Shown here in pieces: positions 1 to 8,644 of a stretch of DNA of 8,644 nucleotides. This DNA is from a virus. Lineage: Duplodnaviria > Heunggongvirae > Uroviricota > Caudoviricetes. The DNA lies in IMG/VR virus record IMGVR_UViG_2740892233_000014. The stretch is one strand, 5' to 3'. Under the pieces are notes generated by a model. That model was given only the letters and a program-made list of their open reading frames with translations, was not told where the DNA came from and made no database searches. The first letter of the stretch is position 1. Every line of letters begins with the position of its first letter. Position numbers and translations under genes: made by a program.

Positions 1-56
1 GCCAGTTACGACAACGTGGACTACAGCCAGATCCCGGCAGGATTCAGGGGGTGATC

Positions 57-545
57 ATGAGTCTTTTGAATGAAGTTCAGAAATTCATTGAAGCCCATCC
101 GGGGTGTACTTCCGGAGACATTGCGGATGCTTTTGCAGGTTACTCACGGCAGCGCGTTCTGCAGTATGCAAGCAAGTTACGTCAGAGTGGGCGTGTGGCT
201 CACCGTTGTGAAGGAGATACACGCAGACATTTCCCGCGCCTGACTGAGAGAGCGAAGGAGCCGGAACCACAACCAGTTCGTGAAACCAGACCTGTGCGCA
301 ATTTCTATGTCGGCACTAACGATCCCCGGGTAATTTTGTGCCTGACCCGCCAGGCGGAAGAACTGGAGTCCAGGGGCTTATACCGTCGTGCTGCAACGGT
401 GTGGATGGCGGCATTCCGTGAAAGCCACTCCCAGTCAGAACGAAACAATTTTCTGGCGCGCCGTGAGCGGTGCTTACGGAAAAGCAGCAAGCGCGCTGTA
501 TCGGGTGATGAGTGGTATCTGTCAGGGAATTACGTGGGGGCTTAA
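57..545 (+). CDS. PerC-like transcriptional regulator family protein (N-terminal helix-turn-helix-like region plus PerC-like C-terminal motif)
   Basis: ORF 51..545; likely start is ATG 57 with GGGGG Shine-Dalgarno at 46-50. C-terminal segment EELESRGLYRRAATVWMAAF resembles the PerC-family motif recalled from memory. Stop TAA overlaps the next start (TAATG at 543-547). Confidence 0.4.
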   Translation: MSLLNEVQKFIEAHPGCTSGDIADAFAGYSRQRVLQYASKLRQSGRVAHRCEGDTRRHFPRLTERAKEPEPQPVRETRPVRNFYVGTNDPRVILCLTRQAEELESRGLYRRAATVWMAAFRESHSQSERNNFLARRERCLRKSSKRAVSGDEWYLSGNYVGA

Positions 546-1198
546 TGAGTAATAAATATTGCCAGGCGTTGGTGGAACTGCGGAACAAACCAGCCCATGA
601 ACTGAAGGAAGTGGGCGATCAGTGGCGCACGCCGGACAACATTTTCTGGGGAATTAACACCTTGTTTGGTCCGTTTGTTCTGGATCTGTTCACTGACGGT
701 GATAACGCCAAATGTGCTGCGTATTACACGGCGGAAGACAACGCGCTGGCGCATGACTGGTCAGAACGTCTTGCGGAGCTTAAAGGGGCTGCCTTTGGTA
801 ATCCCCCATACAGCCGCGCCAGTCAGCATGAGGGGCAATACATCACCGGCATGCGTTACATCATGAAACATGCCAGTGCCATGCGTGATAAGGGGGGGCG
901 CTATGTTTTCCTGATCAAAGCTGCCACCAGCGAAGTGTGGTGGCCGGAAGATGCGGACCATATTGCTTTTATTCGCGGGCGTATTGGTTTTGAACTGCCT
1001 GCCTGGTTTATCCCGAAGGACGAGAAGCAGGTGCCGACAGGAGCTTTTTTCGCTGGTGCTATTGCTGTTTTTGACAAGACCTGGAAGGGACCGGCAATCA
1101 GCTACATCGGGCGCGATGAACTTGAGGCATGTGGTGAGGCCTTTCTGGCGCAGGTTCGCCAGCAGGCAGAAAAACTGGTCAGGGAGATGGCGGCATGA
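545..1198 (+). CDS. phage-type DNA N6-adenine methyltransferase (Dam-like)
   Basis: ORF frame 512..1198 with ATG 545 preceded by GGGGG. Contains the NPPY catalytic motif (GNPPYSRA) typical of N6-adenine methyltransferases; length and position in a nin-like region fit phage Dam. Confidence 0.75.
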   Translation: MSNKYCQALVELRNKPAHELKEVGDQWRTPDNIFWGINTLFGPFVLDLFTDGDNAKCAAYYTAEDNALAHDWSERLAELKGAAFGNPPYSRASQHEGQYITGMRYIMKHASAMRDKGGRYVFLIKAATSEVWWPEDADHIAFIRGRIGFELPAWFIPKDEKQVPTGAFFAGAIAVFDKTWKGPAISYIGRDELEACGEAFLAQVRQQAEKLVREMAA

Positions 1199-1521
1199 CG
1201 ACGTTAACTCAATGCCAGCAGCAGGTGCTGGATATGCTGATTTCTTATCAGAAAGAACGTGGCTTCCCGCCAACCAATCAGGAGGTGGCAACCATGCTGG
1301 GATACCGTTCGGTGAATGCAGCGGTGGAGCATCTTCGCGCACTGGAGAAAAAAGGCGTCATCACGATAAAGCGTGGTGTGGCCCGGGGGATCACGCTTCA
1401 TACCGCGGTGAAGGACGACGACAGCGAGGCGGTCGGGATTATCCGCTCACTGCTTGCCGGTGAGGAAAACGCAAGGCTGCGTGCAACTCACTGGTTACAT
1501 GAGAGAGGCCTGAAAGTATGA
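1195..1521 (+). CDS. LexA N-terminal DNA-binding-domain paralog lacking the autoprotease domain
   Basis: 108 aa. N-terminal 70 residues align closely with E. coli LexA residues 1-70 (LTxxQQxV...G.PPT..E.A..LG.RS.NAA.EHL.AL..KGVI.I....ARGI.L). No Ala-Gly cleavage site or Ser/Lys S24 peptidase domain. ATGA overlap with the Dam stop (1195-1198) and with the rusA start (1518-1521). Confidence 0.65.
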   Translation: MTTLTQCQQQVLDMLISYQKERGFPPTNQEVATMLGYRSVNAAVEHLRALEKKGVITIKRGVARGITLHTAVKDDDSEAVGIIRSLLAGEENARLRATHWLHERGLKV

Positions 1522-1907
1522 AGCTGATCCTGCCTTTCCCGCCCAGCGTGAACACGTACTGGCGACACCCCAACAAAGGGGCATTTGCTGGTAAGAGCCT
1601 GATAAGCGAGGCGGGGCGAAAATTTCAGAGCGCGGCGTGCGCAGCAATAGTTGAGCAGTTACGTCGTCTGCCGAAACCAACGTCGGCACCTGCTTCAGTG
1701 GAGATCGTGTTGTTTCCTCCGGATAACCGGATCCGCGATCTGGACAACTATAACAAGGCGCTGTTTGACGCCCTGACCCACGCGGGTGTGTGGGAAGACG
1801 ACAGCCAGGTGAAAAGAATGCTGGTGGAGTGGGGACCGGTTATCCCGAAAGGGAAGGTCGAGATCACTATCAGTAAGTATGAGAAACCGGCGGGTGCAGC
1901 CGCCTGA
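1518..1907 (+). CDS. rusA: RusA-family Holliday junction resolvase
   Basis: 129 aa. Motif RIRDLDNYNKALFDALTHAGVWEDDSQV matches the RusA catalytic-Asp region (RRDLDN..KA.FDALT). ATGA overlap with the upstream gene. Confidence 0.8.
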   Translation: MKLILPFPPSVNTYWRHPNKGAFAGKSLISEAGRKFQSAACAAIVEQLRRLPKPTSAPASVEIVLFPPDNRIRDLDNYNKALFDALTHAGVWEDDSQVKRMLVEWGPVIPKGKVEITISKYEKPAGAAA

Positions 1908-1926
1908 TTAAGAGGAGAAACGAAGT

Positions 1927-1951
1927 ATGAATAATCTGATGGTCATTGATG
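1927..1951 (+). CDS. 5' fragment of KilA-N gene (first copy, cut by contig end at gap)
   Basis: ATG 1927 preceded by AAGAGGAG; identical to the start of the 2041 gene; terminated by the N10 gap at 1952-1961. Confidence 0.5.
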
Positions 1952-1961
1952 NNNNNNNNNN
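1952..1961. other. assembly gap (N10) with about 100-bp duplicated flanks
   Basis: Run of 10 N; 1845-1951 is repeated at 1962-2066 with substitutions. Confidence 0.9.
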
Positions 1962-2021
1962 GAAGGGAAGGTCGAGATCACTATCAGTAAGTACGAGAAA
2001 ACGGCGGGTGCAGCCGCCTGA
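1962..2021 (+). other. duplicated variant of rusA 3' end (contig-overlap artefact)
   Basis: Repeats 1845-1907 with two substitutions (tatgagaaaccgg vs tacgagaaaacgg) immediately after an N10 gap. Confidence 0.6.
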
Positions 2022-2040
2022 TTAAGAGGAGAAACGAAGT

Positions 2041-2794
2041 ATGAATAATCTGATGGTCATTGATGGTATTGAAGTTCGTCGTGATGCTTATGGGCGTTAC
2101 AGCCTGAACGATCTGCACAGGGCAGCCGGGGGAGAACAAAAAAAACGCCCGAAATACTGGCTCTCCAATAAGCAAACCTGTGAATTGATTGAACAACTTT
2201 TCACCGAGGGTGGAATTCCGCCTCTGGAAAAGAATCAACCAGTTAGCGTTATTAATGGCGGAAATAACCAGGGGACGTATGTCTGCAAAGAACTGGTGTA
2301 TGCCTATGCAATGTGGATCAGCCCGTCATTCCATCTGAAGGTGATCCGTACTTTCGATATGGTAACCAGCGCACCGGAAAAATTATCCGGGCAGGCTGCT
2401 GACAAGATGCAGGCTGGTGTGATTCTGCTGGACTTTATGCGTCGGGAGTTAAACCTGTCTAACTCATCTGTGCTTGGTGCCTGTCAGAAACTCCAGGAGG
2501 CTGTTGGCTTACCGAATCTGGCACCGCGCTATGCCATTGATGCTCCTGCTGACGCGCCTGATGGCTCAAGCCGTCCCACGCTGTCACTGAGTGCACTGCT
2601 GAAGCAGTATGGTATCCGCCTGACAGCTAATCAGGCATATCACCAGATGGTGAAGCTGGGGATCGTCGAGCAGCGCGAACGATACAGCCGTACCGCGATT
2701 AACAACATCAAAAAATTCTGGTCGCTGACAGCGAAAGGCTGCATGTTCGGCAAGAACATCACCAGTCCCGCAAATCCGCGCGAGACGCAGCCGC
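2041..2794 (+). CDS. KilA-N domain / antirepressor C-terminal (ANT-C-like) protein, Roi-like; 3' end interrupted by gap
   Basis: ATG 2041 with AAGAGGAG Shine-Dalgarno. N-terminus MNNLMVIDGIEVRRDAYGRYSLNDLHRAAGG...KRPKYWL is KilA-N-like; C-terminal part (LSLSALLKQYGIRLTANQAYHQMVKLGIVEQRE...AKGCMFGKNI) resembles the phage antirepressor KilAC/ANT C-terminal domain. Reading frame runs into the N10 gap at 2795-2804, so the true 3' end is unknown. Confidence 0.6.
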
Positions 2795-2804
2795 NNNNNN
2801 NNNN
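2795..2804. other. assembly gap (N10)
   Basis: Run of 10 N inside the KilA-N reading frame; flanks duplicated. Confidence 0.9.
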
Positions 2805-2948
2805 CGAAGCTGGGGATCGTTGAACAACGTGAACGATACAGCCGCACTGCGATTAACAACATCAAAAAATTCTGGTCGCTGACGGCGAAAGGCTGCATGT
2901 TCGGCAAGAACATCACCAGTCCCGCAAATCCGCGCGAGACGCAGCCGC
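2805..2948 (+). other. divergent duplicate of KilA-N gene 3' region (short contig between gaps)
   Basis: About 144 bp, near-identical to 2651-2794 with several substitutions; bounded by N10 gaps on both sides. Confidence 0.6.
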
Positions 2949-2958
2949 NNNNNNNNNN
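2949..2958. other. assembly gap (N10)
   Basis: Run of 10 N; joins unrelated gene fragments that share only agacgcagccg. Confidence 0.9.
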
Positions 2959-3128
2959 ATGGGTTAAGACGCAGCCGTGCGCATGTTGTGGAAAACCTGC
3001 TGATGATCCCCACCACCTGATAGGTCACGGTCAGGGTGGAATGGCTACAAAAGCGCATGACCTCTTTGTGTTGCCTTTGTGCAGAAAGCATCACGACGAG
3101 CTGCATGCGGATACCGTGGCATTTGAAG
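2959..3128 (+). other. divergent duplicate of DUF968 Cys/His-motif region (short contig between gaps)
   Basis: Encodes WVKTQPCACCGKPADDPHHLIGHGQGGMATKAHDLFVLPLCRKHHDELHADTVAFE, a variant of 4227-4395 (GQCGMGTK in the main copy). Confidence 0.6.
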
Positions 3129-3138
3129 NNNNNNNNNN
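3129..3138. other. assembly gap (N10)
   Basis: Run of 10 N. Confidence 0.9.
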
Positions 3139-3309
3139 GTTCCCTGAGCTGTTAAAGCTGCTCGATACCGTTCATTGAGGTGACCGTGAGAGCGCTACTG
3201 ACCCCTGAAATTGCCCCGCGTATGGGGATCGTATTGTTCAGGCCCGGTTCAGAGCTGATGCCCCTGTTTATGCAGGGGCGTGTCCTGCTGGAGCCTGAGC
3301 CGGAACGTT

Positions 3310-3319
3310 NNNNNNNNNN
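3310..3319. other. assembly gap (N10)
   Basis: Run of 10 N; 3139-3309 is repeated at 3320-3489 with substitutions. Confidence 0.9.
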
Positions 3320-3360
3320 ATTCCCTGAGCTGTTAAAGCTGCTCGATACCGTTCATTGAG

Positions 3361-4469
3361 GTGACCGTGAGAGCACTACTGACCCCTGAAATTGCCCCGC
3401 GTATGGGGATCGTATTGTTCAGGCCAGGTTCAGAGCTGATGCCCCTGTTTATGCAGGGGCGTGTCCTGCTGGAGCCTGAGCCGGAACGTTATTCATCTTT
3501 CGCCAGTGGTGCCGTTCCGGCGGCATCACAACCGCTGGCGGATGATCCTGCCGTTCGGGCCGTGTTCCGCAATGAGGCAGTGATTCGTCGTGCTGGTGGA
3601 GTGGAATGTCTTGAACGCTGGTTACTTCGTGAAAAAGGTTGCCAGTGGCCTCATTCCGACTGGCACAGCGAGAACATGACCACAATGCGACACACGCCGG
3701 GCGCAATCCGTCTGTGCTGGCACTGCGATAACCAGCTGCGCGATCAGTTCACGGAACGGCTGGAATCAATGGCAACGGATAACTGTGCCCGCTGGGTGTT
3801 GTCTGTCGTGCGTCGGGATCTCGGTTTTGATGACAGTCACGTTGTGACAATGCCGGAACTGTGCTGGTGGCTGATTCGTAATGATCTGGCGGATGCCTTA
3901 CCGGAAAGTGCAGCCCGTAAGGTACTGAGATTACCGAAGCCTGTTGTGCCGTCTGTCACCCGGGAAAGTGACCTTGTGCCTTCGGTTNNNNNNNNNNCCT
4001 GGCGGATGCCTTACCGGAAAGTGCAGCCCGTAAGGCACTGAGATTACCGAAGCCTGTTGTGCCGTCTGTCACCCGGGAAAGTGACCTTGTGCCTTCGGTT
4101 CCTGCCACCAGCATCATCCAGGATAAAGCGAAAAAGGTGCTGGCGCTGAAAGTGGATCCGGAGTCGCCGGAGTCTTTTATGTTACGCCCAAAACGTCGCC
4201 GCTGGGTTAATGAAAAGTACACGCGCTGGGTTAAGACACAGCCGTGTGCATGTTGTGGAAAGCCCGCTGATGATCCCCACCACCTGATAGGCCACGGTCA
4301 GTGTGGAATGGGTACAAAAGCGCATGACCTTTTTGTGTTGCCTTTGTGCAGAAAGCATCACGACGAGCTGCATGCGGATACCGTGGCATTTGAAGAGAAG
4401 TATGGCTCTCAGCTGGAGCTGATATTTCGTTTTATCGATCGTGCGCTGGCAATTGGCGTACTGGCGTAA
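3361..4469 (+). CDS. DUF968-family protein (YdfU-like) with C-terminal HNH-like Cys/His motif; contains an assembly gap and duplicated flank
   Basis: ORFs 3361..4041 and 4059..4469 join in frame if the N10 gap (3988-3997) and the duplicated 103 bp (3998-4100) are collapsed, giving about 331 aa. GTG start at 3361 or 3367, with GAGG at 3358-3361. C-terminus has CxxC...HH...C-x2-HH-x3-H. Family name recalled from E. coli prophage annotation. Confidence 0.6.
3988..3997. other. assembly gap (N10) inside DUF968 gene
   Basis: Run of 10 N; about 97 bp before the gap is repeated in 3998-4100 with one substitution (gtactgag vs gcactgag). Confidence 0.9.
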
Positions 4470-4482
4470 GTGGAGAACGAGC

Positions 4483-5235
4483 ATGAACCTTGAAGCCTTA
4501 CCGAAATATTACTCCCCGAAATCTCCAAAACTGAGCGATGACGCACCGGCGACAGGCTCTGGTGGTTTAACAATTACGGATGTGATGGCTGCGCAGGGGA
4601 TGGTGCAGTCAAAAGCAACGCTTGGGTTTGCTTTATTCCTGGCAAAAGTTGGTGTTCAGGATCCTCAGTTTGCGATTGAAGGTCTGCTCAATTACGCGAT
4701 GGCACTGGATAACCCGACATTGAATAAATTGAGTGAAGAAACCCGGCTACAGATCATTCCTTACCTTGTGAATTTTGCCTTTGCTGATTATTCCAGGTCT
4801 GCGGCAAGTAAGGCTCGCTGTGAGCATTGTGCTGGTACTGGATTTCATAATGTATTGCGCGAGGTGGTGAAACACTCCAGAAGCGGGGAATCTGTTATTA
4901 AGGAAGAGTGGGTGAAGGAACTATGTCAGCATTGTCATGGTAAGGGAGAAGTCAGCACAGCATGCAGAGGGTGCAAGGGTAAAGGTATTGTCCTGGATGA
5001 AAAAAGAACCCGGCTTCATGGCACGCCTGTTTATAAGGTTTGTGGGCGTTGCAATGGAAACCGGTTTAGCCGTTTACCAACCACACTGGCGCGGCTTCAT
5101 GTCCAGAAGCTGGTACCAGACCTGACGGATTATCAGTGGTACAAAGGATATGCAGATGTCATTGATAAACTGGTTACAAAGTGCTGGCAGGAAGAAGCAT
5201 ATGCAGAGATACAATTGAGAAAGGTGACAAGATAA
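4483..5235 (+). CDS. Q: lambda-type antitermination protein Q (copy 1)
   Basis: 250 aa; ATG 4483 with GGAG at 4472-4475. N-terminal SPKSPKLSDDAPATGSGGLTITDVMAAQGM and C-terminal ...QLRKVTR parallel lambda Q (SPKSP...TDVMAA...AVTR, from memory). Cys-rich zinc-binding region present. Followed by a pR'-like promoter. Confidence 0.8.
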   Translation: MNLEALPKYYSPKSPKLSDDAPATGSGGLTITDVMAAQGMVQSKATLGFALFLAKVGVQDPQFAIEGLLNYAMALDNPTLNKLSEETRLQIIPYLVNFAFADYSRSAASKARCEHCAGTGFHNVLREVVKHSRSGESVIKEEWVKELCQHCHGKGEVSTACRGCKGKGIVLDEKRTRLHGTPVYKVCGRCNGNRFSRLPTTLARLHVQKLVPDLTDYQWYKGYADVIDKLVTKCWQEEAYAEIQLRKVTR

Positions 5236-5266
5236 ATGGTTTTCGCCGAAGATGACGACATGATGC

Positions 5267-5310
5267 TTGCATTTTTCAAAAAATATGGATAAGATTTTCC
5301 CAACGATGGG
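5267..5310 (+). promoter_or_regulatory. pR'-like late promoter with promoter-proximal pause / Q-utilisation element
   Basis: TTGCAT (5267-5272), 17-bp spacer, TAAGAT (5290-5295), 6 nt, then AACGATGGG (5302-5310). This reproduces the lambda pR' arrangement TAAATT-N6-AACGATGGG, where AACGAT is the pause-inducing -10-like element. Confidence 0.65.
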
Positions 5311-5343
5311 CTTTGTATGTCTACCGTTGATAAGATTTAAGAA

Positions 5344-5366
5344 CCCGCCGATGCGCGGGTTTTTTT
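5344..5366 (+). terminator. intrinsic terminator (tR'-like)
   Basis: CCCGC / GCGGG stem with 6-nt loop, followed by a 7-T run; about 40-60 nt downstream of the inferred start site. Confidence 0.6.
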
Positions 5367-5405
5367 GTACCCAGAATCCTGTGAGCTATACGGAAAGTAC
5401 ACAGA

Positions 5406-5415
5406 NNNNNNNNNN
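5406..5415. other. assembly gap (N10)
   Basis: Run of 10 N; downstream sequence is a variant of the DUF968 3' end. Confidence 0.9.
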
Positions 5416-5476
5416 CCAGCTGGAGCTGATATTTCGTTTTATCGATCGTGCACTGGCAATTGGCGTGCTGGCCTGA
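5416..5476 (+). other. 3' end of a second DUF968 gene copy (variant), truncated by gap
   Basis: Encodes ...QLELIFRFIDRALAIGVLA then TGA at 5474-5476; same peptide as 4412-4469 with substitutions. Confidence 0.6.
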
Positions 5477-5493
5477 TTTTGTGGAGAAAGTTG

Positions 5494-5835
5494 ATGCGTG
5501 ATATGTATGAAGTATTGGACCGCTGGGGTGCATGGGCTGCAGCAGATAACAGTGGTGTGGACTGGCAGCCTGTTGCTGCAGGGTTTAAAGGTTTACTACC
5601 TCATGGAAAGAAAACACGCCAACAATGCGATGATGATGAAGGAATCATGATTGACAGCTGTGTTGCGCGATTGCGGAAATATAAGCCCGAAGAGTATGAG
5701 TTGGTTATTGCTCATTTTGTTATCGGCATCTCACTAAGAACTATTGCAAAGAAGCAGAAGTGTTCTGATGGGACAATAAGAAAAGAGTTGCAAACAGCTC
5801 TTGGTTTTCTGGATGGTGTGCTTTCAATGTTGTAA
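5494..5835 (+). CDS. phage-82/QuuD-type antitermination protein Q
   Basis: 114 aa; ATG 5494 with GGAG at 5483-5486. MRDMYEVLDRWGAWAA...AAGFKGLLP...CDDD...CSDG resembles E. coli DLP12 QuuD / phage 82 Q as recalled from memory. Stop TAA at 5833-5835. Confidence 0.65.
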   Translation: MRDMYEVLDRWGAWAAADNSGVDWQPVAAGFKGLLPHGKKTRQQCDDDEGIMIDSCVARLRKYKPEEYELVIAHFVIGISLRTIAKKQKCSDGTIRKELQTALGFLDGVLSML

Positions 5836-5840
5836 TATTA

Positions 5841-5863
5841 GGGGGAATTACCCCCCTTTTTTT
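5841..5863. terminator. GC hairpin plus T7 tract at Q / AT-island junction (possible bidirectional terminator)
   Basis: GGGGG-AATTA-CCCCCC followed by TTTTTTT on the + strand. The stop codon and last codons (KKGG) of the minus-strand membrane gene lie inside this hairpin. Confidence 0.5.
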
Positions 5864-6396
5864 CTCTGTTGCTTTAATAAAATTTTAATATTTTGTCTGA
5901 TTATGATGAGGCAATGTAATAAAAGAAATACCGTTAGTATTGCAAGCCATACGCAAAATAAGCATGCATATAAATTAGTTGAAAGTCCAATAGTGAATTG
6001 TGCAATTGCTGTTGTGATAGAACATAATATTGATGTATTAATAAATGAGGATAAATTGTCTAAAGGTTTATAAAGTACACTATCATTGATTTTGTCAATA
6101 GGTATACCAGTGGCAATGCTATAAATTTCCTTATATTCCTGAGTTGCAAAAACCTTATCGCGTAAATTTATTATGACAAAGGTATGCAGGCTCAATAAAA
6201 ATGAGCCCACGGAAATAAAACCGGAGAAGAGATAGCCTCGTAAGTTTTTATGATAAAACTCAAAAAAGTTAACACTTACTTTAGGTGTGTTTCTGTACAA
6301 TAGGTAAAGTGCAAGCAATGCCAGGATCGAGAATGCAAGCAGTGTAAGGTACTGATACCTCAATCTTTTATTTATTAGCCATTCATATAAAGGCAT
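5848..6396 (-). CDS. hypothetical small integral membrane protein (about 4 predicted transmembrane helices, basic C-terminal tail)
   Basis: 182-aa ORF in DNA of roughly 25-30% GC, where stop codons are frequent and a long ORF is unlikely by chance. Hydrophobic stretches at about residues 16-34, 55-77 and 123-166 (two helices); C-terminus RQNIKILLKQQRKKGG. Start overlaps the upstream gene by 14 nt. Confidence 0.7.
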   Translation of the reverse strand: MPLYEWLINKRLRYQYLTLLAFSILALLALYLLYRNTPKVSVNFFEFYHKNLRGYLFSGFISVGSFLLSLHTFVIINLRDKVFATQEYKEIYSIATGIPIDKINDSVLYKPLDNLSSFINTSILCSITTAIAQFTIGLSTNLYACLFCVWLAILTVFLLLHCLIIIRQNIKILLKQQRKKGG

Positions 6397-7309
6397 TTTT
6401 ATTCGTCCCGTTCAGCATTTCTTCTTTTATCATATCAAAAACAGGGTTTGTTGTATAATTATCGTTTGTCAATCCATTGACTTTATCGGCAATTATATCG
6501 AAATCGTATGTTTCAAAAAAAACAGGGCAGTTCATAAAATCAATGGTTTTTTCTATTCCTGCATGGTTTACTGCAATAACCTGTGCTTTAGCAACTCCAC
6601 TCATAGAATTATAAATATTTGAAAGATTCTGAGATAGTTGTTGCACTTTTGTTCTGTCGCTAGAATTAAAATTCATATCTATTGTGGTGGTGTTAACAAA
6701 TTGTTCAAGCGCAGTCATTGGTCCACCTTTAAAATCTATATAATTAAATTTAAAGCTTGTGCTTTTAATCTCTTTGAATTGACATAAAACACTCTGAATG
6801 TTGTTTTTATTTGTCATAAGGCTGAAAGTCAGTCTTTCTTTGTATTTTTTATTTATTGCAGTTACTTCTTTTTGTTTTGGTTTATCACCAAGTTTTTTTA
6901 TTTCTTCTTTATTTTGATTTCTGATAAATTCATTACTTATTGTTTCTAAATGAGAAAAGAGAGTGTTCAGACTGCATGAACCGTGGTGATACATATAGAG
7001 ACCAGAAAGATTAGATTTTTTAATTAAGAAAAAGTTGAAATTAGCAAGTTTGTCACTTCCTTGAAGATCTTCAATTTTAAGCTGGAATTTACCATCAACA
7101 AATTGCGACTTACAGTTCTTTTTTTGGTTTCTGAATGTGACAACTAATCCATAATAGAAATCATTCACATCCGAAATGAGAATTTTACGAGTATAGTCTG
7201 TGCGACTGTGTTCTCTGTTTGATGCGTTGATAAAAGCATTCATTACGTCAACGGTATTAATATTTTTGTTATTGTTATTTATTGTAAATCCTATGCTTCT
7301 AACTTTCAT
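6383..7309 (-). CDS. hypothetical protein, no recognisable family (Asn/Lys-rich, soluble)
   Basis: 308-aa uninterrupted ORF in strongly AT-rich DNA; ATG at 7309 (complement). No transmembrane segment and no motif I can assign (no obvious nucleotidyltransferase, P-loop or HNH signature). Confidence 0.7.
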   Translation of the reverse strand: MKVRSIGFTINNNNKNINTVDVMNAFINASNREHSRTDYTRKILISDVNDFYYGLVVTFRNQKKNCKSQFVDGKFQLKIEDLQGSDKLANFNFFLIKKSNLSGLYMYHHGSCSLNTLFSHLETISNEFIRNQNKEEIKKLGDKPKQKEVTAINKKYKERLTFSLMTNKNNIQSVLCQFKEIKSTSFKFNYIDFKGGPMTALEQFVNTTTIDMNFNSSDRTKVQQLSQNLSNIYNSMSGVAKAQVIAVNHAGIEKTIDFMNCPVFFETYDFDIIADKVNGLTNDNYTTNPVFDMIKEEMLNGTNKNAFI

Positions 7310-7427
7310 GTGTATTCCAGGACCGACTAAAGATAGCGAGAATGGGGACGCATAGTTTATAAAAATCCTAACGCGTACGCAAAAAGTATTATATCGTGTT
7401 AAGAGTGGTTACTTCGCCACACAACTT

Positions 7428-7452
7428 AAACCCGCCGCTGAGCGGTTTTTTT
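7428..7452 (+). terminator. tR'-like intrinsic terminator (weaker stem)
   Basis: AAACCCGCCGCTGAGCGG followed by a 7-T run; homologous in position and sequence to the hairpins at 5344-5366 and 8384-8406. Confidence 0.45.
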
Positions 7453-7616
7453 GTACCTGTAAACCTTGTGCAGTACAGTAAACACGCTGGTGGTCGTGAA
7501 TACTGGCTTTTTATCTTGCTGGCTTTTTAGACAAGAGTTATTGGTATGTCATGTTAACCGGAAAAAGGAAAGTTTGAGAAACGCGATCTGGCACAGGCGG
7601 TTATTAATGCTGCCTA

Positions 7617-7626
7617 NNNNNNNNNN
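7617..7626. other. assembly gap (N10)
   Basis: Run of 10 N; the preceding 60 bp is identical to 8509-8568. Confidence 0.9.
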
Positions 7627-7645
7627 TTCTGCGTTCCTTGGGAAA

Positions 7646-8302
7646 ATGGGCATTAGTATGAATGACAGAGAGCGGGCAACAGAATTGCTGACAGAATATG
7701 CACTCAGTCGGTGTGATCGCGTGGCGGCGTTAAGAAAACTCCCGGCAGAAATAAAACCGGCAGTGATGCGTATTATGGCTTCGTATGCGTTTGAAGATTA
7801 TGCCCGTAGCGCGGCGAGCAAAAAACAGTGCCCCTGTTGTCACGGAAAAAAATTTATTGAAAGCGAGGTTTTTACAAACAAGATCCAGTATCCGGATGGT
7901 AAGCCGCCAGTGTGGGCAAAGTGCACAAAAGGCGTGTATCCGTCTTACTGGGAGGAATGGAAAAAAGTCAGGGAGGTGGTAAAAGTTGCCTGTCCGGAGT
8001 GTGGAGGGAAGGGGGAGGTTTCCACCGCCTGTAAAGATTGTCGTGGGCGCGGTGTTGCCATTCATCGTGAAGAGTCGGTAAAACGTGGTATGCCTGTTAT
8101 CAGAGACTGCCAGCGTTGTGGTGGTCGTGGCTATGAAAGATTACCTTCAACGGAGGCATTTAATGCCATATGTAATGTAACCGATGCCATATCTCTTGAT
8201 ACATGGAAAAAAACAGTTAAACGTTTTTACGATACGCTGGTGGTGCAGTTTGATATTGAAGAAGCATGGGCAGAACAACAACTGAAAAAGGTGACCAGAT
8301 AG
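7646..8302 (+). CDS. Q: lambda-type antitermination protein Q (copy 2, divergent paralog)
   Basis: In-frame ATG at 7646 (alternative 7658). C-terminus TVKRFYDTLVVQFDIEEAWAEQQLKKVTR parallels lambda Q (TVKPLYDALVVQ...AVTR, from memory); Cys-rich zinc-binding region shares GKGEVSTAC with copy 1. The ORF-track extension back to 7466 crosses an N10 gap and is not credible. Confidence 0.75.
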   Translation: MGISMNDRERATELLTEYALSRCDRVAALRKLPAEIKPAVMRIMASYAFEDYARSAASKKQCPCCHGKKFIESEVFTNKIQYPDGKPPVWAKCTKGVYPSYWEEWKKVREVVKVACPECGGKGEVSTACKDCRGRGVAIHREESVKRGMPVIRDCQRCGGRGYERLPSTEAFNAICNVTDAISLDTWKKTVKRFYDTLVVQFDIEEAWAEQQLKKVTR

Positions 8303-8307
8303 CTTTG

Positions 8308-8350
8308 TTGATTTTTCCCGAATCTGTGGTAAATTTGCCCTAACGATGGG
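8308..8350 (+). promoter_or_regulatory. pR'-like late promoter with pause / Q-utilisation element
   Basis: TTGATT (8308-8313), 16-bp spacer, TAAATT (8330-8335), 6 nt, AACGATGGG (8342-8350); near-identical layout to lambda pR'. Confidence 0.65.
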
Positions 8351-8383
8351 CGTTTTATGCCTGACGTTAGAAGATTTTTTACA

Positions 8384-8406
8384 CCCGTCGCCAGGCGGGT
8401 TTTTTT
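8384..8406 (+). terminator. intrinsic terminator (tR'-like)
   Basis: CCCG...CGGG GC-rich stem followed by a 7-T run, about 40-60 nt after the inferred start site. Confidence 0.55.
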
Positions 8407-8644
8407 ATGACTGAAATCACGCCAGTACAGTAAACGCGCTGGTGGTTGTGAATACCGGTCTTTCAGCTTGCTGGCTTTTTCGACAAGAGTTATTGGTGTG
8501 TCACGTTAACCGGAAAAAGGAAAGTTTGAGAAACGCGATCTGGCACAGGCGGTTATTAATGCTGCCTACCTGGTGGCCTGTGCAGATGGTGAATGTGAGG
8601 CTTCCTAGAAAGCGAAGATCGAACAGGTACTGCGTAATCAGCCT

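Follow-up and report, generated by a model that had tools for sequence, protein, structure and literature searches.

Pieces of at least three related Escherichia coli prophages are joined by 10-N spacers in a draft viral record

The stretch of DNA examined here, to which we refer as the window, is the whole of an 8,644-nucleotide (nt) sequence of Caudoviricetes DNA (IMG/VR record IMGVR_UViG_2740892233_000014), and our subject is the set of N runs that interrupt it and the order of the prophage genes, three Q antiterminator genes among them, that stand on either side of those runs. The window mixes pieces of at least three related Escherichia coli prophages. It is almost certainly a scaffold from a short-read de Bruijn graph assembly (k = 65, Velvet-like), and the assembled DNA would be that of an E. 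coli lineage of the Shiga-toxin type with several near-identical lambdoid prophages. A reading made from the sequence alone had counted eight exact runs of ten N (N10 runs), and all eight were found at that length; they divide the window into nine blocks, B1 to B9 (Table 1). The range on which that sequence-only reading dwelt, 2041-5476, covers six of the eight.

The blocks in closed genomes

A megablast search of 5,426 complete E. coli genomes found the order of the window in none of them, and in none does a single place cover 80% of its length or more. At the best closed-genome place, 79% of the window is matched within 5,949 base pairs (bp), which is the expectation for one prophage with the duplicates removed. 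Among the E. coli genomes with any match, the median number of matching places is two, and some genomes have up to 12. The junction of B1, the N10 run and B2 likewise found no match in a scan of genome contigs.

Taken one by one, most of the blocks have exact counterparts, and these lie in separate prophages. E. coli 01_3327 (NZ_CP074961.1) has two prophages that both carry the module PerC-Dam-LexA-RusA-KilA-N-DUF968-Q. The one at 5.36 Mb, the large-Q prophage (L002), ends in a 753-bp Q followed by transfer RNA (tRNA) genes; in the one at 1.23 Mb, the small-Q prophage (L003), the module ends in a 342-bp Q, and beyond it lie two hypothetical genes on the reverse strand and a TerB pseudogene. 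B3, B5 and B7 match the large-Q prophage at 100% identity (at L002 7276-7419, 7436-7606 and 8001-9408, respectively), and so do B4 and B8 the small-Q prophage (B4 at L003 6490-6659, B8 over 2,201 nt). Several of these blocks recur elsewhere without a mismatch: B3 at L006 4525-4668, in the small-Q prophage of strain RM8385; B4 at L001 9490-9659 and L006 5478-5647; B8 in L001 and L006; and B7 in many O26/O145 closed genomes. The copy of B7 in the RM8385 Stx1a prophage (L005) has 2 mismatches. B9 is 100% identical to L004 7001-8018. Its match is a prophage of a third type (DUF968-RusA-Q-TerB), present in O103 RM8385, in which Q is annotated at L004 6855-7676 and thus starts 146 nt ahead of B9.

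The closed genome of O103 RM8385 (NZ_CP028112.1) has a Q gene of each of the three types, at 1.98, 3.50 and 5.14 Mb. Its small-Q prophage has 809 bp between B3 and B4 and carries B4 downstream of B5, whereas in the window B4 is upstream. The suspicion that the window interleaves segments of two or more related prophages is therefore borne out, because closed genomes place the blocks in prophages that are megabases apart. Measured in closed-genome coordinates, the distances implied across the eight N10 runs range from -997 to +809 bp (Table 1), and no N10 run is a true gap of about 10 bp separating its flanks.

Repeats between blocks and the placement of block boundaries

All-against-all BLAST of the blocks and base-by-base comparison showed that neighbours repeat one another at four of the gaps. 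The tail of B1 (1848-1951) is repeated in the head of B2 (1962-2065) over 104 nt with 3 differences; the tail of B2 (2651-2794) in the whole of B3 (2805-2948) over 144 nt with 8 differences; B5 (3139-3309) in the head of B6 (3320-3490) over 171 nt with 3 differences; and the tail of B6 (3885-3987) in the head of B7 (3998-4100) over 103 nt with 2 differences. These neighbour repeats are not due to chance, since their BLAST E-values range from 1e-47 to 1e-84. The proposal that each gap sits between neighbouring repeats consequently holds for the gaps at 1952, 2795, 3310 and 3988; it fails for those at 2949, 3129, 5406 and 7617, where the repeats are internal or non-neighbouring. B4 repeats a stretch inside B7 (4226-4395, 9 differences), the head of B8 repeats an internal part of B7 (4409-4477) and not its end, and the tail of B8 repeats an internal part of B9 (8379-8568) at 87% identity with three insertions or deletions.

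With B3 and B5, its actual neighbours, B4 has nothing in common except the 11-mer AGACGCAGCCG, which occurs at 2783, 2937 and 2967, with a one-mismatch copy at 4234. The flanks of the junction at 2949-2958 share only this 11-mer, just as had been described. We considered AGACGCAGCCG as the cause of the B3-B4 junction and rejected it, since an 11-nt match cannot link nodes at k = 65. It is also common to KilA-N and DUF968 in natural loci, and its sharing between the two genes is a coincidence.

The positions at which the blocks begin and end follow a rule. At all seven of the testable starts, the first base of the block after the gap is a variant relative to the paralogue, and at all six of the testable ends (1951, 2794/2948, 3128, 3309, 3987 and 7616) the block stops exactly 64 nt past the last variant; in B1, for example, the last variant is at 1887 and the block ends 64 nt later. 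The lengths of B3, B4 and B5 equal the span of their variants plus 64 (80 + 64 in B3). Because the blocks start on variants and end 64 nt beyond them, we take this pattern to be characteristic of nodes in a de Bruijn graph with k = 65 that are output without their k-1 prefix. The earlier description is thereby refined: the N10 runs separate alternative arms of bubbles or forks at k = 65, and not the usual overlapping contig ends.

A simulation that made no use of the window gave the same boundaries. We took the 65-mers private to one of the two 01_3327 prophages (L002 and L003), indexed by their last base, and compared the resulting private runs with the blocks. The simulated runs coincide to the base with B3 and B5 at their L002 positions given above, with the head of B7 (L002 8001-8103), with B4 at its L003 position and with the start of B8 (L003 6673), and the arms inside B1, B2 and B6 were likewise matched exactly. 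When k was set to 63 or 67, the simulated ends were off by 2. Addition of the third prophage (L004) to the simulation placed the end of B8 exactly, at L003 8873. Short nodes that are common to both copies and lie between bubbles, one of 16 nt (ATTTCTTCGAATCCCG) and one of 13 nt (AGAAGTATGGCTC), are absent from the scaffold. Once the duplicate arms are removed and the 16 nt of ATTTCTTCGAATCCCG are restored, KilA-N measures 810 bp and DUF968 990 bp, which are the RefSeq gene lengths.

Table 1. Blocks, N10 runs and genes of the window. Gene positions and block positions are those of the window; implied distances are in closed-genome coordinates.
Feature	Coordinates	Strand	Content and evidence	Implied distance
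B1	1-1951	+	PerC/YfdN, Dam, LexA-family, RusA, KilA-N start; tail 1848-1951 is a bubble arm	
N10 run 1	1952-1961		Flanks (B1/B2) are alternative arms	-104 bp
B2	1962-2794	+	Head 1962-2065 is the other RusA-end bubble arm, then KilA-N 2041-2794	
N10 run 2	2795-2804		B3 is the alternative arm to the final 144 nt of B2	-144 bp
B3	2805-2948	+	144-nt bubble arm; other allele, KilA-N 3' region	
N10 run 3	2949-2958		KilA-N fragment to DUF968 fragment	+809 bp (closed genome RM8385)
B4	2959-3128	+	170-nt bubble arm, misplaced; small-Q-prophage allele, DUF968 Cys/His (HNH-like) region; paralogue 4226-4395	
N10 run 4	3129-3138		Order reversed: B5 is 963 bp upstream of the B4 end in closed genomes	-963 bp
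B5	3139-3309	+	171-nt bubble arm; final 40 nt of KilA-N and DUF968 start; 01_3327 large-Q allele	
N10 run 5	3310-3319		B5 and B6 head are alternative arms	-171 bp
B6	3320-3987	+	KilA-N end 3320-3359, DUF968 5' part 3367-3987	
B6 arms	3320-3490 and 3885-3987		Collapsed common stretch in the middle	
N10 run 6	3988-3997		Flanks (B6/B7) are alternative arms	-103 bp
B7	3998-5405	+	DUF968 3' part to 4469, large Q 4483-5235, terminator-like hairpin	
N10 run 7	5406-5415		Fork: B8 branches off at B7 position 4409 as the other continuation	-997 bp
B8	5416-7616	+	Last 61 nt of small-Q DUF968, small Q, minus-strand two-gene cassette, terminator-like 7434-7446, TerB pseudogene start 7588-	
N10 run 8	7617-7626		B8/B9 are alternative paths into the same TerB repeat	-942 bp
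B9	7627-8644	+	Third prophage; Q without its first 146 nt, terminator-like 8383-8400, TerB pseudogene start 8540-	
PerC/YfdN	51-545	+	Pfam hits, RefSeq names	
Dam methylase	545-1198	+	Pfam hits, RefSeq names	
LexA-family	1195-1521	+	Pfam hits, RefSeq names	
RusA	1518-1907	+	Pfam hits, RefSeq names	
KilA-N start in B1	1927-	+	Pfam hits, RefSeq names	
KilA-N in B2	2041-2794	+	First 754 nt of the 810-bp gene; PF04383 match	
Large Q	4483-5235	+	PF03589, 176.8 bits	
Small Q	5494-5835	+	PF06530, 153.9 bits	
Putative membrane protein, candidate RexB-like partner	5848-6396	-	182 amino acids, putatively multi-pass, 3-4 hydrophobic spans (hydropathy)	
RexA/RdgC-like predicted fold	6383-7309	-	308 amino acids	
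Third Q	7627-8302	+	PF03589, 136.5 bits (7628-8302); first 146 nt lost at gap	

Formation of the scaffold and rival explanations

We propose that, in the assembly behind this record, prophage copies that were identical for at least 65 nt would have been collapsed into one node and that copies that differed would have been kept in both versions, as bubble arms or as fork branches. The scaffolder would then have written the alternative arms consecutively with a minimal 10-N spacer. The true loci, as closed genomes show them, are three: a small-Q prophage with PerC-Dam-LexA-RusA-KilA-N-DUF968-Q(PF06530), a two-gene reverse cassette and TerB; a large-Q prophage with the same module ending in Q(PF03589), a Q that in some strains lies upstream of stx1; and a third prophage with DUF968-RusA-Q(PF03589)-TerB. 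The window belongs to a known class of draft-assembly artefact in the prophage-rich genomes of Shiga toxin-producing E. coli (STEC), and it has been noted that the homologous prophages of STEC genomes are beyond what short reads can resolve (PMC10925052).

Three other explanations were weighed. If the record were taken at face value, the window would be a real locus with tandem duplications and three Q genes in 4 kb, and the N10 runs would be small unsequenced gaps. In its favour, lambdoid prophages recombine freely, and local mosaics such as 3420-3610 are found in contigs free of N. Nevertheless, the order of the window occurs in 0 of the 5,426 closed genomes, the boundaries follow the k = 65 rule to the base, and B4, whose proper place is downstream of B5 and B6, stands ahead of both; moreover, real duplications of this kind would truncate both KilA-N and DUF968 and would strip 146 nt from the third Q. 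We give this explanation next to no credence. The same graph artefact might instead have been fed by two or more co-sequenced strains, or by a metagenome, with one prophage from each, and bubbles from a mixture of strains look identical to bubbles between paralogues. Against a mixture, both or all three prophage types are found together on single closed chromosomes, where blocks are matched at 100%, and the multiple matching places per genome reported above point in the same direction. For that reason we regard a mixture of strains as improbable and a single genome as the probable home of all the copies.

Several contig-ordering tools and submission pipelines insert fixed short N spacers, and a third possibility is that a reference prophage served, once assembly was complete, to put separate contigs in order, with N10 inserted where they were joined. 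The contigs of a k-mer assembler, however, carry a k-1 overlap at both ends, whereas the blocks here carry only the 64-nt suffix, and sorting against a reference would have put B4 after B7 and B6 before B5, neither of which is observed. On the block order and the missing k-1 prefixes we rejected such pasting, which we consider very improbable indeed.

Some observations weigh against the explanation by a linearised k = 65 graph, or at least complicate it. B1, B2 and B6 have no exact counterpart in closed genomes, the best matches being 98.8%, 99.8% and 99.3%, respectively; they may be assembler chimeras produced by path-switching or bubble-merging, or they may be real recombinants or products of gene conversion between co-resident prophages. 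The carrier of B3 differs by strain, being the small-Q prophage in RM8385 and the large-Q prophage in 01_3327, and a fixed phasing of the blocks into two haplotypes, which we attempted, is on this account only partly possible. Finally, we take it that Velvet writes nodes without the k-1 prefix, uses odd k and pads gaps shorter than 10 to ten N, and our literature search for the 10-N minimum gap and for the Velvet node convention found no documentation of either; the assembler itself was presumably Velvet or one that behaves like it.

The three mosaic blocks can be described allele by allele. Apart from position 356, wherever B1, B2 and B6 mismatch one 01_3327 prophage they have the allele found in the other, and these mismatches come in runs. 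B1 is a patchwork of both allele sets at the 59 sites that separate the 01_3327 prophages, with one private single-nucleotide polymorphism at 356. The head of B2 is 100% identical to L002 6599-6702 and the remainder is identical to L001, from which B2 differs only at 1962, 1994 and 2001. The five mismatches of B6 to the small-Q prophage (3585-3694) are exactly the 01_3327 large-Q alleles. The points at which alleles switch in B6, in the head of B2 and at the main switches of B1 fall within identical stretches of at least 65 nt. Sites 262 and 398 of B1 are isolated and stand outside this pattern, and they look like real strain differences. A local mosaic in B6, the 191-nt stretch 3420-3610, is present in two N-free IMG/VR contigs, and in the scan of genome contigs this stretch found no match. 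We rejected these two contigs as the source of the window, as their other blocks differ from it.

False genes and the Q antiterminators

The raw sequence contains a 93-codon open reading frame (ORF) at 2897-3178 that spans two N10 runs. It joins B3 (KilA-N, identical to the large-Q prophage), B4 (DUF968, identical to the small-Q prophage) and B5 (identical to the large-Q prophage of 01_3327). Because the scaffold joins pieces of separate prophages with 10-N spacers, this KilA-N/DUF968 fusion ORF and the cluster of three Q genes are artefacts and not biological. The sequence-only reading had cautioned against taking either of them as a single natural locus, and the caution was well placed, since the blocks come from different prophages and the Q genes of RM8385 lie megabases apart.

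All three Q genes match their Pfam families above the gathering score (Table 1). The large Q of B7 is the same RefSeq protein, WP_001047129.1, as the Q of the RM8385 Stx1a prophage, where it lies about 570 bp upstream of stxA1a/stxB1a (L005 9280-11826). In 01_3327 the gene for this protein is followed by a DNA methylase fragment and the tRNA genes Ile-Arg-Arg, and there is no stx within the 8 kb examined downstream of Q in that large-Q prophage. B7 ends 170 nt past the Q stop codon, and therefore the stx or tRNA context of the source strain is not visible in the window.

Two further observations concern these prophages. The RM8385 Stx1a prophage has, between KilA-N and DUF968, an extra 516-bp hypothetical gene (L005 7752-8267); none of the other prophages examined has it, and it is a further instance of the shuffling of modules hereabouts. 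Also, 3' of each Q in the window there is a GC-rich hairpin with a T run behind it, at 5342-5371, 7429-7457 and 8383-8400. The terminator-like sites at 7434-7446 and 8383-8400 come from a terminator scan; the hairpin near 5342-5371, which looks like a terminator, is not in the scan output and was read by eye and by its likeness to 7429-7457.

The value of this result is only as a warning about the record, and there is nothing new in the structure of the scaffold. Annotation of the record would yield a KilA-N/DUF968 fusion that does not exist, KilA-N and DUF968 genes that are cut short, and a spurious cluster of three Q genes. The type of Q and its linkage to downstream genes are used in reasoning on the regulation of Shiga-toxin phages, and the false adjacency could mislead such reasoning because the large Q lies upstream of stx1a in RM8385. 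We note that the k-1 boundary rule provides a simple test, for which no reads are needed, for linearised bubbles in other draft records.

A reverse-strand gene pair in B8

Between the small Q and the terminator-like site at 7434-7446, B8 contains an AT-rich (27-35% GC), overlapping pair of minus-strand genes at 5848-7309. The pair is conserved in prophages of Escherichia, Yersinia and Klebsiella; in those of Yersinia ruckeri and Klebsiella aerogenes it is likewise convergent with a PF06530 Q gene, and the family of the 308-amino-acid (aa) protein is confined to Enterobacterales. Neither protein has a Pfam or PADLOC match or a significant NCBIfam match; among PHROGs, the 308-aa protein matches only families to which no function is assigned (phrog_2802), and no family matches the 182-aa protein. 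The 308-aa protein has a predicted RexA-like fold, with a split globular domain and a dimerisation domain, related to RdgC, and at the sequence level no link to RexA was found (hhalign probability 0.3%). RexB has four transmembrane helices. The 182-aa protein, a putative multi-pass membrane protein, shows 3-4 hydrophobic spans, and over its N-terminal 87 aa BLASTP aligns it weakly and collinearly with lambda RexB (E = 0.026).

We offer tentatively, at somewhat less than an even chance, the interpretation that 5848-7309 is an undescribed, sequence-divergent RexAB-like exclusion cassette that occupies a moron slot, an unusual position for such a cassette, between the PF06530-type Q and the terminator-like site and late region downstream. 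Phage exclusion is accordingly put forward as a candidate function. In B8 the 1.5-kb reverse cassette stands between Q and the hairpin, and this arrangement suggests insertion of the cassette at a site beyond Q and ahead of the point where the late operon begins.

Comparison with known systems

Lambda RexAB lies beside cI in the immunity region, whereas the B8 cassette lies downstream of Q and is convergent with it; it also differs from lambda RexA and RexB in having no detectable RexA sequence similarity and no PADLOC match. The window as a whole is closest to the lambdoid prophages of STEC and enterohaemorrhagic E. coli of serogroups O26, O103, O111 and O145, with which it shares the same gene module and, in B3-B5 and B7-B9, 100% identity. 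It departs from prophages of this type in B1, B2 and B6, which have no exact match among them, and in its Q genes: in those genomes every Q has a prophage to itself, and in RM8385 more than 1.5 Mb separates any two of them, whereas in the window the three are adjacent.

As an assembly product, the window goes beyond a simple linearisation of bubbles in one respect, the misordering of B4. In the rest it has the features of a de Bruijn bubble or fork artefact: the spacers are fixed at 10 N, the blocks start on their first private base and end at k-1 (64), and the short blocks have the lengths of bubble arms. The likeness extends to the sources of the arms, which are distinct loci of finished genomes, and to the graph itself, as one built in silico from closed prophages reproduces the boundaries.

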